Assembly: GCA_035561295.1 (NCBI GenBank)
Contig: DATMXW010000029.1
Span: forward strand, 12,669 to 36,668
Origin: Methanospirillum sp.
GTDB taxonomy: Archaea; Halobacteriota; Methanomicrobia; Methanomicrobiales; Methanospirillaceae
Direction of reading: 5' to 3'
Length of the DNA: 24,000 nt
Shown here: positions 13,028-24,000 of the stretch, piece by piece
Layout: the number at the start of each line of letters is the position of its first letter
How positions within the stretch are numbered: the stretch's first letter is position 1
Notes under the pieces: model-generated
Told to the model about the DNA's origin: nothing
The model's input: only the letters and a program-made list of their open reading frames with translations
Databases searched by the model: none
Made by a program: the position numbers and the translations under genes

Positions 13028-13798
13028 ATGTTCTGGAATGGAAAAGGAGTAACACTCCTTGTTGTGGGTCTGCTTTTGGCAGTAGTCGGCATGCTGCCAG
13101 TGTATGCAGAGAATGCTACTGAAAATGCCACGGTATCCAGTGAGGAAGGGGCACCTGAGATGGGTGTGGCCGTATTTAAATACAGTCCGGTCGGAATCTC
13201 AATGACCCAGGCTGATGGGGTGACGTCATCCATCAGTGAATTTGCAGGTCATACTCTTATTGCTTTCACGACAGACACCAATAAGACAGCATTATCTGTT
13301 GATGTCCTGGCAACAAACCTGACTCTTGAAGAGATTAACGCTGATATCTTGACCAAAATGGAGTCCAAAAAAGACTTTAAATTGATATCAGAAGAGGAGA
13401 CAACCCTGGGCGGTGTACCTGCACATAAGGACGTCTTTACCTATTCACCCTTTGAGGGGGTTTCCAAAGAAGTCACTCAGATCGCAGCAGTAAACAATGG
13501 AAACCAGTATGTGATCCAGACTGAGGCTATTGACGGAGACAAATCAGCACAAGAACTTGGTGTCCCGATGATTGAGTCGTTCCAGTTCATCGCGATAGCT
13601 GATGATAATATCTCCAAAATGGTGAAGAGCAAGTTTAAGAAATCTGCCAAGCCAAGCAAGGGATATAGCATCTACTCCTACCCTACCTACTCCACTGAAC
13701 TTGACTGGAGCTGGTATGAAGGGTACCACTGGGACTATGTCGAAGAATGGTGTACCTGCATGGTAGAGACCATTGACTACTACTGCTGGTGCTGGTAA
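13028..13798 (+). CDS. secreted protein (256 aa) with a Lys-rich linker and a W/Y/C-rich acidic C-terminal tail; function unknown
   Basis: Signal peptide MFWNGKGVTLLVVGLLLAVVGMLPVYA|ENATENAT. The globular mid-region (...TLGGVPAHKDVFTYSPFEGVSKEVTQIAAVNNGNQYVIQTEA...) is reminiscent of PsbP/DcrB/DUF1795-type folds, but this is weak. Linker KMVKSKFKKSAKPSK at nt 13616-13660. The tail GYSIYSYPTYSTELDWSWYEGYHWDYVEEWCTCMVETIDYYCWCW lies at 13661-13795. A TATA-like catatata sits about 30 nt upstream. Confidence 0.75.
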   Translation: MFWNGKGVTLLVVGLLLAVVGMLPVYAENATENATVSSEEGAPEMGVAVFKYSPVGISMTQADGVTSSISEFAGHTLIAFTTDTNKTALSVDVLATNLTLEEINADILTKMESKKDFKLISEEETTLGGVPAHKDVFTYSPFEGVSKEVTQIAAVNNGNQYVIQTEAIDGDKSAQELGVPMIESFQFIAIADDNISKMVKSKFKKSAKPSKGYSIYSYPTYSTELDWSWYEGYHWDYVEEWCTCMVETIDYYCWCW

Positions 13799-13868
13799 TT
13801 CATACCACATCTTTTCTTTTCAGTACTGAATCATATTGAATTTTGACCATTCCCATCTGTTTCTAATT

Positions 13869-15824
13869 ATGATGATGAAATCAACAGTCGCTATTATATG
13901 TACTCTCATTCTGATCATGACCGTGGGATTCTCCGGAGCAGAGAATAGTACTCCATCAGCGGATTCACCCACCAAAATATCCTCAAATGGGACAGTGCTT
14001 GCGGTCTACATGATAGGAAGTAATCTTGAGTTTGATCCTCAGGATCCGTCCCAGGGTGGAGCGGCTACCAAGGATATCAAGGAGATGGTGATGGGGTATG
14101 GTAACAAAACCGGGAACCTTGATGTATTGATCGGGTATGGAGGATCCTTAAAACCAGGATGGAAAGGGATCACGTATGTTACCCTCGGGCAGGTGCGAGA
14201 GGATCTCTCTGATGGGGTAATTGGAAACAGCCAGGCTATCCAGTTTAAAGACGAGAACGCGGATATGACCGAACCCAAAACCCTTACTTCATTCTTACAG
14301 TATACAAAAGAGCAATATCCGGGTGCACGGGTATTGCTGGTATTCTGGGACCACGGGAGTGCCTGGGAAGGGTTTGGTATAGATGATAACTTTCATGACA
14401 GGGCAACTGGAGATTATCATTTAATTCCACCACAGGATATTGCAGCAGCACTGAAAAACTCAAACGTCCATGCTGATCTGATAGGATTTGACGCATGTTT
14501 GATGGCAAATATGGATGTTGCTCTGAGTATTGCGCCATATGGTGACGTCCTTGTCTCCTCTGAAGATCTGGAGCCAGGATTTGGCTGGGACTGGAAAACA
14601 TTTCTTCAGCGATTATCAGCAAATCCTTCGCTGACTGCAGAAGAACTGGGTACGATAATTGTTGATGCATACATTGACAATCCCGCTCATACTGATACAG
14701 GAAAGACACTATCAGTCATAAGACTGGCCAATGTCCAGGAGCTCTCAGACAAATTTGATTCGTTCTCGGAGGTGCTCAGCACTGAACTTACTGATGAGAA
14801 GAAGTTCAAACTGATGGCTGCGTCTATTAATAGAGTGAAAGCATTTGGAACATATCCAATTCTGAAAAGTGGAGAGACCGGGGAGACAACGATCGATCTG
14901 AAGGATTATCTCACCTCTATCGCGAAATATAATCCGGATAAGAGAAGTGATGTCCAGGTTATCCAGTCGCTCTTAAATAACACAGTAGCATACAGTCGTG
15001 AAGATGGGAGCCGCCCCTTCTCAAACGGGATCTCGATATATTCCCCATATACTGCCATCCTGGCATCAGATAATAAAGCCAAAAGAACTGAACGGCGAGG
15101 ATCAGGCTTTGAATTGTTTTTAGATCTCTTTGCACAATCTGCTAAGAGCTCAAAACTTGCACCCCAGATTATTCAGGATCGTGGAGGGTATACCGTTGAT
15201 GACAATGAAAGTTACACCATCGGCCTGACATTTCTACAAAATATTCCTGAAGGGGTGATATATCTGGGCACTGAACCTGCATATCCAGACAAACCAGGAC
15301 ATTATCCTTTCCCAAAATGGGGAGGATGGGGCCTGATGTGGAAGGATAAGAAAACAGATAAAAGTCTGGTCTGCCCGGTTGAATTTGTGGGATATACATC
15401 AAAGGGAAGAGAACGATATACTGCATGGGGAGCCGTAACCCGTGGCGATATGAAGAAGAATCTTAAATTTGACTTCTATTATGAACCTAAAACCGGCGAT
15501 ACCGAGTACTATGTAGTGCCGTATCAGGGAACAGGATCTTCGACCATCTATGATCGATCAGTGTTTAAATTTGTCCCGGGTGATATTCTCACCATGACCG
15601 CAAAGTATCGGCTCAAGACATTGTCAGAAGAACGGCGTGAATATGGATCAATCACCTGGACTGACCAGACCGCCATCGGGTATGGAATGCTTCCCTGTGG
15701 TAACTACACCATCATGTTTGATGTAGAAAATGTGGCACGGAAAATTGTATACCAGGATACCAAAGAAGTCCCGGTTGTGTGCGGTGAAGGAGTACCAGCG
15801 GAGAACGTAACCCCCGTGTCATAA
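13869..15824 (+). CDS. secreted clostripain-like cysteine peptidase (MEROPS C11 family), paralog A, with ~200-aa C-terminal extension
   Basis: I chose the ATG at 13869 (MMMKSTVAIICTLILIMTVGFSGA signal peptide) over the TTG at 13836. C11 hallmarks: VLAVYMIGSNLE...DIKEM at the N-terminus, catalytic His in LLVFWDHGSAWEGFG (CAC 14352-14354) and catalytic Cys in LIGFDACLMANM (TGT 14496-14498). Confidence 0.85.
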   Translation: MMMKSTVAIICTLILIMTVGFSGAENSTPSADSPTKISSNGTVLAVYMIGSNLEFDPQDPSQGGAATKDIKEMVMGYGNKTGNLDVLIGYGGSLKPGWKGITYVTLGQVREDLSDGVIGNSQAIQFKDENADMTEPKTLTSFLQYTKEQYPGARVLLVFWDHGSAWEGFGIDDNFHDRATGDYHLIPPQDIAAALKNSNVHADLIGFDACLMANMDVALSIAPYGDVLVSSEDLEPGFGWDWKTFLQRLSANPSLTAEELGTIIVDAYIDNPAHTDTGKTLSVIRLANVQELSDKFDSFSEVLSTELTDEKKFKLMAASINRVKAFGTYPILKSGETGETTIDLKDYLTSIAKYNPDKRSDVQVIQSLLNNTVAYSREDGSRPFSNGISIYSPYTAILASDNKAKRTERRGSGFELFLDLFAQSAKSSKLAPQIIQDRGGYTVDDNESYTIGLTFLQNIPEGVIYLGTEPAYPDKPGHYPFPKWGGWGLMWKDKKTDKSLVCPVEFVGYTSKGRERYTAWGAVTRGDMKKNLKFDFYYEPKTGDTEYYVVPYQGTGSSTIYDRSVFKFVPGDILTMTAKYRLKTLSEERREYGSITWTDQTAIGYGMLPCGNYTIMFDVENVARKIVYQDTKEVPVVCGEGVPAENVTPVS

Positions 15825-22657: not shown

Positions 22658-22752
22658 ACCAATGGGGTATCATCACCGGGAATCCTGCTGATGGCATCGT
22701 CCGGGTTCAGCAGAAGGAAATGATGACTGAATACCTCACAGGAGACTGATTC

Positions 22753-24000
22753 ATGATACATAGACATTTAACACAACTATTATTGCAGATACTGGTAATA
22801 TCTCTGATAACCGCTCTTATGATCTCCCCGGCTCTCGCCGGGTGTGGCCCGTCAAAAGGACTATTCTCTGGATCCCAGCTAACCTCAACCCTGGTTAGTC
22901 CTACCGGGACTCTCAGTGAAACACCACAATATGCCCAGAATGTAACTTCGGTAAAAACTGGACAGAACGATGATGACTGGGTTGCAATTGGCAACAGTCA
23001 GGTACAATCAGGATCTTACCAGGAAGCGATAACGGCGTATGACAAAGCAATTGAGAGTGACAGCAAAAACGCAGCTGCCTGGAATGGAAAGATGTCCGCC
23101 CTCTTGTTCCAGGATAAGTACACTGAGGTAATGGAACTCTTTTCTGATGCAGAAAAAGTTATTCCCAACAATCCGGGGATATGGATCAACAAGGGAAGAG
23201 CCGAGTATTATGCAGGCAATATGTCAGATGCAATTCAATCTGCTGATACTGCGCTCAGACTAGAGAAGGACAATATCGACGCAATGGTTCTCAAAGCCAA
23301 TGGCCTGGTTGATAGCGGGAAGAATGAAGAGGCACAAGCTCTGACTGACCGTGTGCTTGAATTAGATCCCCAAAACCAGGAGATCTGGTACGTTCAGGGT
23401 ACGATCCAGTTCCTGAATAAAGAGTACGCAAAAGCAATTGAGTCAATGGAGAAAGATCTGAAGCAGAATCCAGATAGGATATGCTCGTACTTCTACCTCT
23501 CCATGAGTCATAAAGAGATATCAGGATCTGAAGCGGTCATTGAGGTCCTTGACCGGATGACCAAGCATTTCCCTACCGATAACCGATATGCAAATGCTGA
23601 AGTGGGAGATTTACTCATCCAATTAGTGAAGAAAACTCCCGGTACATATCTTCATGACACCGTCCCACTCTGGGAGTGGTACTTTTCATATAATGATCAA
23701 GGAGACGAGGCATATTACCAGCAATATCTAGGAGATAGATGGAGTACTGTTAAGTTCGCTCTAGAGGATTATATATTAGGGAGGAAGGGAAGTTTTGATG
23801 ATATTGAGACGATCATAAAGCCTCTTCAGAAAAAAGCAGAGCCCCTTACCAACCCAGAGACCGATGTTATTATCGATATATATCACGAATTTGCAAATGT
23901 CGCATGGAGGAGTGGTCGATATTTCGAATCAGTCAAATCGGCTGATAACTTCATTAATTTAACCTCTGAGGAGAATAGATTATACCCAAATGTCTTTTGG
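22753..24000 (+). CDS. TPR repeat protein with lipobox-like signal peptide (putative lipoprotein), paralog 2; 3' end lies outside the window
   Basis: It is absent from the ORF track because no stop is reached. Frame 1 is open from the ATG at 22753 to nt 24000 (416 codons). A GGAG lies 8 nt upstream. N-terminus MIHRHLTQLLLQILVISLITALMISPALAG|CGPSKGLFSG (Cys31, TGT 22843-22845). It is collinear with 17777-19516 (GSYQEAITAYDKAIESDSKNAAAWNGKMSALL..., NPDRICSYF, VPLWEWYF). Confidence 0.85.
   Translation, partial: MIHRHLTQLLLQILVISLITALMISPALAGCGPSKGLFSGSQLTSTLVSPTGTLSETPQYAQNVTSVKTGQNDDDWVAIGNSQVQSGSYQEAITAYDKAIESDSKNAAAWNGKMSALLFQDKYTEVMELFSDAEKVIPNNPGIWINKGRAEYYAGNMSDAIQSADTALRLEKDNIDAMVLKANGLVDSGKNEEAQALTDRVLELDPQNQEIWYVQGTIQFLNKEYAKAIESMEKDLKQNPDRICSYFYLSMSHKEISGSEAVIEVLDRMTKHFPTDNRYANAEVGDLLIQLVKKTPGTYLHDTVPLWEWYFSYNDQGDEAYYQQYLGDRWSTVKFALEDYILGRKGSFDDIETIIKPLQKKAEPLTNPETDVIIDIYHEFANVAWRSGRYFESVKSADNFINLTSEENRLYPNVFW

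Follow-up and report, generated by a model that had tools for sequence, protein, structure and literature searches.

In the stretch of Methanospirillum sp. DNA analysed here (the window, 24,000 nucleotides), three C11 peptidases, two TPR proteins and a small tail-bearing protein are encoded together and, judging from the genomic evidence, they most likely cooperate as a cell-surface protein-cutting module. The C11 peptidases are ordinary members of their family, and what is undescribed is their association with TPR and tail proteins. No curated family or paper assigns the cluster to a known pathway, in agreement with the sequence-only reading, which knew of no described archaeal one of this composition.

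Seven ORFs were found between positions 13028 and 24000 (Table 1). Six of the encoded proteins have one N-terminal hydrophobic segment each (12-mer Kyte–Doolittle score 2.9–3.7), and a hydrophobicity scan found no TM-like segment further along in these six exported proteins. The sequence-only reading had described these 11 kb as made up almost entirely of signal-peptide-bearing proteins. This holds for the six, but the seventh, the Hjc-like protein, lacks a hydrophobic N-terminus and interrupts the exported run. It is cytoplasmic, has no homologs at the related loci and is an unrelated gene outside the module.

Table 1. Features of the cluster, in positions of the window.
Feature	Position	Strand	Remarks
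Tail protein	13028-13798	+	256 aa; signal peptide aa 1-27; PsbP-fold domain aa ~46-190
Lys-rich junction NISKMVKSKFKKSAKPSK	13607-13660	+	aa 194-211; ends at invariant Lys211
C-terminal tail GYSIYSYPTYSTELDWSWYEGYHWDYVEEWCTCMVETIDYYCWCW	13661-13795	+	aa 212-256; aromatic/Cys-rich
C11A	13836-15824	+	ORF from TTG 13836; most likely start ATG 13869; Pfam PF03415 E 1.6e-44
C11A residues (ORF numbering)	14352; 14490; 14496		His173; Asp219; Cys221
C11B	15827-17755	+	Probable start ATG 15869 (MKKIYLF...); Pfam Peptidase_C11 E 3.8e-47
C11B residues	16337; 16457; 16463		His171; Asp211; Cys213
TPR1	17777-19516	-	579 aa; Pfam TPR_1/TPR_2 E 1e-31 to 5e-35
KGLFSG codons, TPR1	19426-19409	-
Hjc/PD-(D/E)XK-like protein	19812-20492	+	Pfam Hjc E 1e-6; FQETDRK heptad repeats
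C11C	20714-22657	+	Pfam Peptidase_C11 E 1.4e-40
C11C residues	21203; 21323; 21329		His164; Asp204; Cys206
TPR2	22753->24000	+	At least 416 aa, runs past window end; strong TPR match
KGLFSG codons, TPR2	22855-22872	+

The HMM searches proposed earlier gave strong Pfam matches for both the C11 and the TPR proteins. C11A, C11B and C11C score far beyond the Peptidase_C11 gathering score (E 1e-40 to 4e-47) and their dyad residues could be placed, which bears out the claim of three paralogs with an intact His/Cys dyad. C11B and C11C share 45% identity, C11A and C11B 33%, and C11A and C11C 30% (E 1e-81 to 0). The AlphaFold2 (AF2) model of C11B (pLDDT 87) comprises a C11 domain at aa 45-432 followed by two beta-sandwich domains at aa 438-640, and Foldseek matched it to thetapain/iotapain, the PdC11 zymogen and clostripain (E ~1e-13), which confirms the C11 fold at the level of the predicted structure. 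The PF03415 match, the His/Cys dyad, the Asp-x-Cys S1 pocket, the caspase-like fold with a helical C-terminal domain and secretion are all shared with PmC11, thetapain/iotapain, clostripain and globupain. In all three paralogs an Asp lies two residues N-terminal of the Cys, and H171, D211 and C213 (C11B numbering) are invariant across 20 homologs. This S1 Asp accounts for the Arg/Lys specificity of PmC11 and clostripain (PMC4850288), and Lys/Arg specificity at P1 is documented for globupain, an archaeal C11 enzyme (PMC10315481). C11A, C11B and C11C are therefore best read as putative Lys/Arg-specific peptidases. Compared to the characterised enzymes, the window proteins have about 200 additional C-terminal residues (the two beta-sandwich domains) and occur as three paralogs clustered with dedicated partner genes. 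The residue at the position of the autoprocessing site of PmC11 and clostripain varies (R, K, I or P), and the clostripain equivalog model scores only 32 bits against a cut-off of 550.

The two TPR proteins are paralogs (41% identity over ~370 aa, E 7e-96) and each adjoins a peptidase gene, as had been noted from the sequence. TPR1 is convergent with C11B across a 21-nt spacer, and the two are thus not co-transcribed in the source genome. TPR2 starts 95 nt downstream of C11C, with GGAG 9-12 nt ahead of its ATG. That this adjacency occurs twice had been used as an argument for coupling, which carries little weight by itself, as TPR genes abound in this region: the window contains four, including those at 7324-7989 and 8513-9562. 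The KGLFSG-type motif is absent from these other two. The partner proteins constitute a rare TPR subfamily whose hallmark is an invariant KGLF[S/T]G a few residues past the signal-peptide cleavage site; K31, G32, L33, F34 and G36 are unchanged across nine of them. When six-frame translations of 1.3 Mb of loci were searched for KG[LIVMFY]F[ST]G, every in-ORF match lay at the start of a TPR protein, either in a cluster or on the TPR-only short contigs L092 and L093. The label 'TPR lipoprotein' applies to both window copies, in which a LAGC lipobox precedes GPSKGLFSG, but the lipobox is local to them: in the closest homolog the sequence is VQAGPCGPSKG, and plain signal-peptidase-type sites are the rule among the rest.

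Stronger evidence for functional coupling of the C11, TPR and tail families comes from outside the source genome, where their clustering is kept. The proposed gene-neighbourhood comparison found the three families together in at least seven further Methanospirillum-type contigs with different gene order and flanks. KGLFSG-type TPR genes, tail homologs and C11A- or C11B-type orthologs cluster in L081 (two TPR genes, tail, one intervening gene, C11A, TPR, C11B-type), L083/84 (TPR, tail, C11A, four inserted genes, C11B-type), L086 (tail, then C11A), L090 (TPR, tail, PKD protein, KGLFSG-TPR), L094 (TPR divergent from tail) and L096 (TPR, tail, C11A, TPR). C11A orthologs (51-54% identity) come after the tail-protein genes in L083/84, L086, L096 and L081, and such an ortholog is adjacent or one gene off in four of the five tail loci with enough downstream sequence. 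In the case of P0095, a distant tail homolog, the next gene encodes a PKD protein and is not a C11 gene. The cluster has a variant in L010, L011 and L013 (M. purgamenti), in which the tail-family PsbP-like domain matches the N-terminal domain of 475-aa proteins (hhalign probability 97%, E 4.6e-11) that run on into an aromatic-rich segment plus a TPR-like domain. These fusion genes adjoin a KGLFTG-TPR gene that shares a 4-nt overlap with a C11 gene. The conserved clustering despite rearrangement supports a functional link between the three families, with the reservation that synteny stems partly from shared ancestry, since all related loci belong to one narrow lineage.

Alternatively, the genes could be unrelated neighbours. 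The C11 proteins would then be secreted peptidases of general function, used to scavenge peptides or turn over surface proteins, and brought close to TPR and tail genes only by the abundance of exported and TPR genes in Methanospirillum and by the kinship of the compared genomes. The four TPR genes within 24 kb would fit this, as would the tandem KGLFSG-TPR genes on L092 and L093 with no C11 gene within view. Globupain, moreover, is a stand-alone, caseinolytic archaeal C11 enzyme, and the 640-aa C11 architecture is widespread in bacteria and Methanosarcina, where no TPR or tail neighbours were found. For this last reason the C11-TPR-tail association appears specific to Methanospirillum and Methanoregulaceae. 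We consider this explanation unlikely, though deserving of serious attention, since the adjoining TPR proteins are not generic but belong to the motif-bearing subfamily, and the tail family is itself rare (six clusters at 50% identity among 1.84e9 representatives) with a C11A ortholog nearby in most loci. Furthermore, the cluster is conserved while the window's flanking genes are absent at all related cluster loci compared, and the fusion protein of the M. purgamenti-type loci also argues for cooperation.

The small secreted protein reported directly upstream of the first peptidase is indeed there, and it provides a candidate substrate for the proposed module. Its Pfam PsbP_2 match is weak (E 0.003, under the cut-off). 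The domain was nevertheless modelled by AF2 with a pLDDT of ~90 and matched PsbP in Foldseek (E 2.7e-8); PsbP, LpqN, DcrB and Eag chaperones are all fold matches to aa 46-190 (E 3e-8 to 1e-4). None of these PsbP/Mog1-fold envelope proteins is known to combine a Lys-rich junction with an aromatic tail, as this protein does. From aa 194 onward AF2 predicted disorder. Seven of the 16 residues of SKMVKSKFKKSAKPSK are Lys, and F187, D193, S196, K197, M198, K202, P209 and K211 are invariant in nine homologs, with the junction consensus ..SKM.K.K......P.K. The tail that follows consists of 33% W/Y/F (7% in the remaining protein) and contains four Cys and no K or R. Homolog tails are hypervariable and can be aligned only among close relatives. 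They measure 36-45 aa with 25-44% aromatic residues, apart from one outlier (175 aa, 12%), and are CxC-rich, G/F-rich or N/S-repeat-containing.

Release of the tail by a peptidase, as had been suggested, is plausible given the invariant Lys-rich junction, the K/R-poor tail and the S1 Asp of the peptidases. The tail protein may be a substrate or precursor of the C11 peptidases, and C11A would cut within the junction, most simply after Lys211, so that the tail is freed or removed. The cut could either yield a surface-active peptide or mature the PsbP-like domain. A second target might be the K-G bond of KGLFSG, and a cut there would take the TPR protein of the source organism off its lipid anchor. 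Both cleavage sites are guesses. Outside the window only 3-4 residues separate KGLFSG from the predicted mature N-terminus; a cut there would trim off next to nothing in most homologs, and a docking or recognition motif fits better.

If the outcome is a peptide, the cluster could be a precursor-protease system for a secreted archaeocin-like antagonist or signal, with the C11 enzymes as maturation proteases and the PsbP/Eag-like domain as carrier, chaperone or immunity part. A conserved carrier domain and an invariant junction followed by hypervariable tails would suit this, a K/R-poor tail would survive a Lys/Arg-specific protease, and Eag chaperones and T6SS immunity proteins are among the fold relatives. 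There is also archaeal precedent for protease-cut exported precursors: a larger precursor is cleaved to yield halocin C8 from its C-terminus. In haloarchaeal antagonism, an extracellular protease cuts the exported precursor of the HlyR4/HFX_0892 pair to give a small active fragment (PMC12893001). HlyR4, however, is a serine halolysin that is encoded away from its precursor and frees an N-terminal fragment, whereas the candidate here is a C-terminal tail. Since the cluster contains no transporter, immunity or modification genes, tail chemistry differs widely among homologs and the need for several TPR proteins is left unexplained, a bioactive peptide seems improbable.

The conserved cleavage-type junction before a variable C-terminal segment could also indicate surface sorting, in which the aromatic tail is a sorting or anchoring signal that a clan CD enzyme removes or transpeptidates, the PsbP-like domain becomes fixed to S-layer, sheath or plug, and the TPR proteins are assembly factors. 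The clan CD enzymes GPI8 (C13) and PorU act as C-terminal signal transpeptidases, the families are confined to a sheathed lineage, and the PsbP-fold relatives LpqN and DcrB are envelope-biogenesis lipoproteins. Still, we give sorting very little credence, since the tail lacks a TM helix, a PGF motif and a folded C-terminal domain, there is one tailed protein per cluster where sorting systems usually have many cargoes, and we know of no C11 enzyme that acts as a transpeptidase. The papers on the M. hungatei envelope and sheath name no peptidase or TPR component, and no evidence was found for the sheath-processing role suggested earlier.

For the proposed module, the bacterial LbcA-CtpA (P. aeruginosa) and NlpI-Prc (E. 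coli) systems are best read as the closest functional analogues. They likewise pair a lipid-anchored TPR protein with an extracytoplasmic protease, and their substrates are recognised via unstructured C-terminal regions (PMC8764530, PMC6050968). By analogy to LbcA for CtpA and NlpI for Prc, the TPR proteins may act close to the membrane as scaffolds or adaptors, serving the peptidases, their substrates or both. The bacterial proteases are serine (S41) C-terminal processing enzymes working in the periplasm, whereas the window enzymes are clan CD cysteine peptidases, and similarity of the window TPR proteins to NlpI is generic (24.5 bits with the NlpI model against a cut-off of 250). With somewhat less than even confidence, we propose that the cluster is a lineage-specific extracytoplasmic proteolytic module of Methanospirillum-type methanogens that would act outside the cytoplasmic membrane.

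Since six of the seven proteins encoded between 13028 and 24000 carry a single N-terminal hydrophobic segment and no further TM-like segment, the first observation of the sequence-only reading, a cluster made up almost entirely of exported proteins, is borne out with one exception. The exception is the Hjc-like protein, which is without any hydrophobic segment and reads as cytoplasmic. Its C-terminal part has an Hjc/PD-(D/E)XK-like nuclease fold (Pfam Hjc E 1e-6; DUF234 and Card1-like matches weak), a tandem repeat (21 nt x 3.4) encodes its N-terminal FQETDRK heptad repeats, and its gene is placed between the two C11+TPR units of the window. 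PDDEXK/AAA and nucleotidyltransferase genes are likewise inserted between the C11 genes of the related locus L083. Directly upstream of the cluster lies a gene for a 459-aa membrane protein with two TMEM175 repeats (endosomal/lysosomal K+ channel family), a neighbour that is not kept beside the cluster in other loci. An antisense ORF covering the C11C 3' end and the C11C-TPR2 spacer is most likely spurious. Rfam, tRNA and tandem-repeat scans found no RNA elements in the region, and intergenic regions inspected for archaeal TATA and oligo-T gave nothing informative.

Features of the cluster and its surroundings, in window positions
Feature	Position	Strand	Remarks
CDF cation-efflux gene	4213-5166		~8 kb upstream of cluster
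Exported TPR gene	7324-7989	+	
Exported TPR gene	8513-9562	-	
TMEM175-type membrane protein	11416-12795	+	
Tail protein	13028-13798	+	256 aa
C11A	ORF 13836-15824		likely start ATG 13869
C11B	15827-17755		start per homologs ATG 15827 or ATG 15869 (MKKIYLF...)
TPR1	17777-19516	-	
PSK-GLFSGAIL sequence	19409-19435		
Hjc/PD-(D/E)XK-like protein	19812-20492	+	226 aa
Tandem repeat	19898-19969		
C11C	20714-22657		
Antisense ORF	22261-22767	-	168 aa
TPR2	22753 to past window end		
PSK-GLFSGAIL sequence	22846-22872		

The three peptidase paralogs, read from sequence as C11 enzymes with an intact His/Cys dyad, proved to be just that. All three match Pfam PF03415 (Peptidase_C11) with 140-162 bits against a gathering cut-off of 25.8 (E 1e-40 to 4e-47) and contain the catalytic contexts WDHG/SDHG and GFDAC. 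An alignment of 20 full-length homologs showed that His171, Asp211 and Cys213 (C11B numbering) are invariant, and judged by these residues the three peptidases are catalytically complete. In characterized members an acidic S1 residue two positions before the Cys confers Arg/Lys specificity (PmC11 Asp177, clostripain Asp229; PMC4850288), and the three peptidases of the window are predicted to be Lys/Arg-specific. In globupain the preference is likewise for Arg, and processing takes place at Lys (PMC10315481). The AF2 model of C11B (pLDDT 87) has the C11 fold at aa 45-432, with a caspase-like alpha/beta/alpha domain and the C11 C-terminal domain, for which Foldseek returned 6n9j, 6nag, 6mzo and 9cip at E ~1e-13 (thetapain/iotapain, the P. 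distasonis zymogen and clostripain). Two beta-sandwich domains follow at aa 438-640 and these had no significant match in the PDB. Activating autoprocessing in PmC11 and clostripain takes place at a Lys/Arg in the loop after the catalytic His. At this G-x-D position C11B has R, C11C has K and C11A has I, while some orthologs have P. The window peptidases are not members of clostripain proper, as they score 32 bits against a cut-off of 550 for the NCBIfam equivalog TIGR02806. The 640-aa architecture is widespread and was found in Methanospirillum, Methanoregulaceae, Methanoculleus, Methanosarcina, Sericytochromatia, Dehalococcoidia and others. As enzymes, the C11 peptidases of the window are ordinary additions to an established family. 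The window belongs to a metagenome-assembled genome of Methanospirillum sp., and its C11B has 100% identity to the NCBI protein P0001, named 'clostripain-related cysteine peptidase', on a 38.6-kb contig. P0001 has 609 aa and starts ~33 residues past the ORF start; with that start the signal peptide would be lost.

TPR1 and TPR2 match many TPR models, including TPR_1/TPR_2 repeats (Pfam, E 1e-16 to 5e-35), which agrees with their first assignment. None of the curated TPR families passes its cut-off, with NlpI (NCBIfam) at 24.5 bits versus 250, and NlpI, PrsT, MamA, PilW and other named TPR families, all far under their cut-offs, can be ruled out. C11B and C11C are 45% identical to each other and C11A is 30-33% identical to both, while TPR1 and TPR2 share 41% identity over ~370 residues. 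Because the C11B/C11C and TPR1/TPR2 pairs have diverged to a similar extent, this fits the duplication of one C11+TPR unit. The adjacency of a C11 and a TPR gene, which occurs twice and had been taken as an argument for functional coupling, is real. TPR genes, though, form a dense background in this genome and two more exported TPR proteins, both lacking the motif described below, are encoded in the window, so that adjacency alone is weak evidence.

What sets TPR1 and TPR2 apart is the motif KGLFSG directly after the signal peptide. The same motif is present at the N-terminus of TPR proteins encoded beside C11 or tail genes at related loci (three at L081, one at L083/84, two at L096 and one each at L090 and L094), and KGLF[T/N]G variants occur at L010, L011 and L013. 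Six-frame translation of the fetched loci (1.3 Mb) gave matches to KG[LIVMFY]F[ST]G inside ORFs only at such TPR N-termini. A profile of the subfamily searched against 5.8e9 proteins gave only eight further members, mostly fragments, some of which are encoded in tandem on short contigs where no C11 gene is seen. By their sequences, TPR1 and TPR2 thus belong to a special TPR subfamily that is marked by KGLFSG. That they are predicted lipoproteins applies to this contig only: a canonical lipobox (LAGC|GPSKGLFSG), which predicts lipidation, follows the h-region in TPR1, TPR2 and P0221, the closest homolog has AGPC instead (VQAGPCGPSKG) and the other homologs have no lipobox. Since the canonical lipobox is confined to the KGLFSG-TPR proteins of this contig, predicted lipidation is a local trait, and most members have a signal-peptidase-type site before the motif (e.g. 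TVA|EKSKGLFSG). P0221, a partial TPR protein that contains LAGCGPSKGLFSG and shares 51% identity with TPR1, is encoded on the same 38.6-kb contig outside the window; the contig therefore has at least three lipobox KGLFSG-TPR genes. An archaeal class III (prepilin-like) signal is ruled out for the TPR proteins because the hydrophobic segment precedes the KG and polar sequence comes after it. The PSK-GLFSGAIL sequence resembles the influenza HA0 cleavage site and start of the fusion peptide (R|GLFGAIAGF). This likeness is probably a coincidence, but the sequence is of a kind that gains function only once cut behind a basic residue.

The association of the three components was found to recur outside this genome. 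C11A orthologs (51-54% identity) directly follow tail-protein homologs at L083/84, L086 and L096, and at L081 one gene intervenes. KGLFSG-TPR genes flank these tail/C11A units in varying position and orientation: the order is TPR, tail, C11A, TPR at L096, the TPR gene is divergent from the tail gene at L094, and L081 has two TPR genes upstream and one between its C11 genes. Four unrelated genes are inserted between C11A and the C11B-type gene at L083, and at L090/91 the genes after a distant tail homolog encode first a PKD protein and next a KGLFSG-TPR protein. As called, this PKD-domain protein (L090 1579-2790, downstream of the tail homolog P0095) has no signal peptide and its start is overlapped by a 43-aa ORF, which may reflect a frameshift or a mis-called start. 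The genes flanking the cluster in the window (TMEM175, CdhD-like, CHASE4 sensor, CDF, ABC) are absent from these related loci. When the neighbours of 32 loci were clustered, TPR genes turned up in Methanospirillum and Methanoregulaceae alone; in bacteria and Methanosarcina the 640-aa C11 proteins lack TPR or tail neighbours, and a universal partner of this architecture is ruled out since none was found. The C11 peptidases could be independent general peptidases that happen to lie beside exported proteins. We consider this unlikely in view of the gene neighbourhoods, according to which tail protein, TPR protein and C11 peptidase form a conserved, lineage-restricted triad of predicted exported proteins. 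C11 homologs of the Methanosarcina-type loci L002, L004 and L005 have their own conserved small neighbour genes, and a CDF cation-efflux gene lies ~1.5 kb downstream of the C11 homolog in L002 and L005.

Three variant loci of the M. purgamenti type (L010, L011 and L013) encode a 475-aa exported protein directly upstream of a KGLFTG-TPR gene, which in turn overlaps a C11 gene by 4 nt, with a second C11 gene nearby. At its N-terminus this 475-aa protein has a domain homologous to the PsbP-like domain of the tail family (hhalign probability 97%, E 4.6e-11), which ends at the same SF.FI motif; after it come ~110 aa rich in Y/P/Q/G/W and then a TPR-like domain, a fusion by which tail-protein and TPR components are linked. 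A conserved 444-aa exported protein that has no counterpart in the window is encoded between both C11 genes (L010 4350-5690, L011 10723-12057, L013 8488-9828, all on the - strand).

The tail family is small. An exhaustive HMMER search of 1.84e9 representatives gave only six clusters at 50% identity, with more distant matches restricted to the central domain, and a metagenome scan for homologs gave only 3 short loci. In the AF2 model of the window protein, aa 46-190 form a domain of high confidence and the sequence is disordered from aa 194 on. Pfam PF18933 scored 18 bits, under its cut-off of 27, and Foldseek matched the domain to 4rth, 2xb3 and 2vu4 (E 3e-8 to 2e-7, target TM 0.63-0.67), so that the modelled domain is assigned to the PsbP/Mog1 alpha-beta sandwich fold. 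Its fold relatives include PsbP, LpqN, DcrB, Eag chaperones and some T6SS immunity proteins. Nine aligned homologs share invariant residues at the junction behind the domain (F187, D193, S196-K197-M198, K202, P209 and K211). In the window protein the junction reads NISKMVKSKFKKSAKPSK, and Lys occupies 7 of the 16 residues of SKMVKSKFKKSAKPSK. Past Lys211 the sequences are alignable only among close relatives. These tails are 36-45 aa long with 0-2 K/R and 0-4 Cys, and W/Y/F make up 25-44% of them versus 7-10% of the domain in all homologs but one, which has a 175-aa tail with N/S-rich repeats and only 12% W/Y/F. The tail of the window protein is acidic and aromatic and has no K/R.

Several roles for the tail were considered. 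A PGF-CTERM/archaeosortase or other TM-type sorting signal is ruled out because there is no TM-like 19-mer past the signal peptide and the tail has no K/R, and a conserved metal site because the Cys count ranges from 0 to 4 among homologs. That the tail is a sorting or attachment signal seems very unlikely to us. A RiPP precursor cluster is also ruled out, as no modifying enzymes (radical SAM, YcaO, LanM and the like) were found in Pfam scans of the window genes, which covered all but four small ORFs (80-227 aa, one overlapping a scanned gene), nor in the neighbour lists of related loci. A protease-activated secreted peptide has an archaeal precedent (PMC12893001) and is improbable here. More specifically, hypervariable aromatic/Cys-rich secreted peptides might be clipped from a PsbP/Eag-like carrier at the junction by the co-encoded C11 peptidase, with the KGLFSG-TPR proteins as surface adaptors or receptors. 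Methanogens would then have a clan CD protease-precursor system that serves signalling or antagonism, a speculation to which we give little credence.

By model and alignment, the conserved domain is joined to a variable tail poor in K/R through a disordered, Lys-rich junction. We propose that C11A would cut this junction and that the tail would be freed or removed. By analogy with the TPR-adaptor/protease pairs LbcA-CtpA and NlpI-Prc (PMC8764530, PMC6050968), the role of the TPR proteins would be that of scaffolds or adaptors. A second target may be the K-G bond of KGLFSG, where in the window a cut would detach the TPR protein from its putative lipid anchor. This is the weakest of the inferred points. 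Because such a cut would remove only 3-4 residues in most homologs, we favour a docking or recognition role for KGLFSG.

In agreement with the sequence-only reading, which knew of no described archaeal pathway combining C11 peptidases with TPR lipoproteins, the papers and curated models that we found describe no C11/TPR/tail association, and the sheath and S-layer literature gave no link to the cluster. What is new is the association together with two small, undescribed partner families; the enzymes themselves are of an already known type. We rate the module as a putative envelope protease system in which a TPR protein is the adaptor and the tail-bearing protein the substrate. The case is purely genomic and its lineage narrow, but the prediction is sharp in that it names a single protease, a single substrate and the region of cleavage. 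If the genes are independent, they add three more ordinary C11 peptidase genes. Very little is known of extracytoplasmic proteolysis in methanogens, and globupain is the only archaeal C11 enzyme to have been studied, and that on its own. Should the proposal hold, the module would give archaea a first counterpart to the TPR-adaptor/envelope-protease pairs of bacteria, based on a caspase-clan enzyme. It would also define a small family with hypervariable aromatic tails behind an invariant cleavable junction, a pattern typical of released peptides, and may offer an opening to methanogen surface biology or to inter-microbial antagonism in syntrophic communities.
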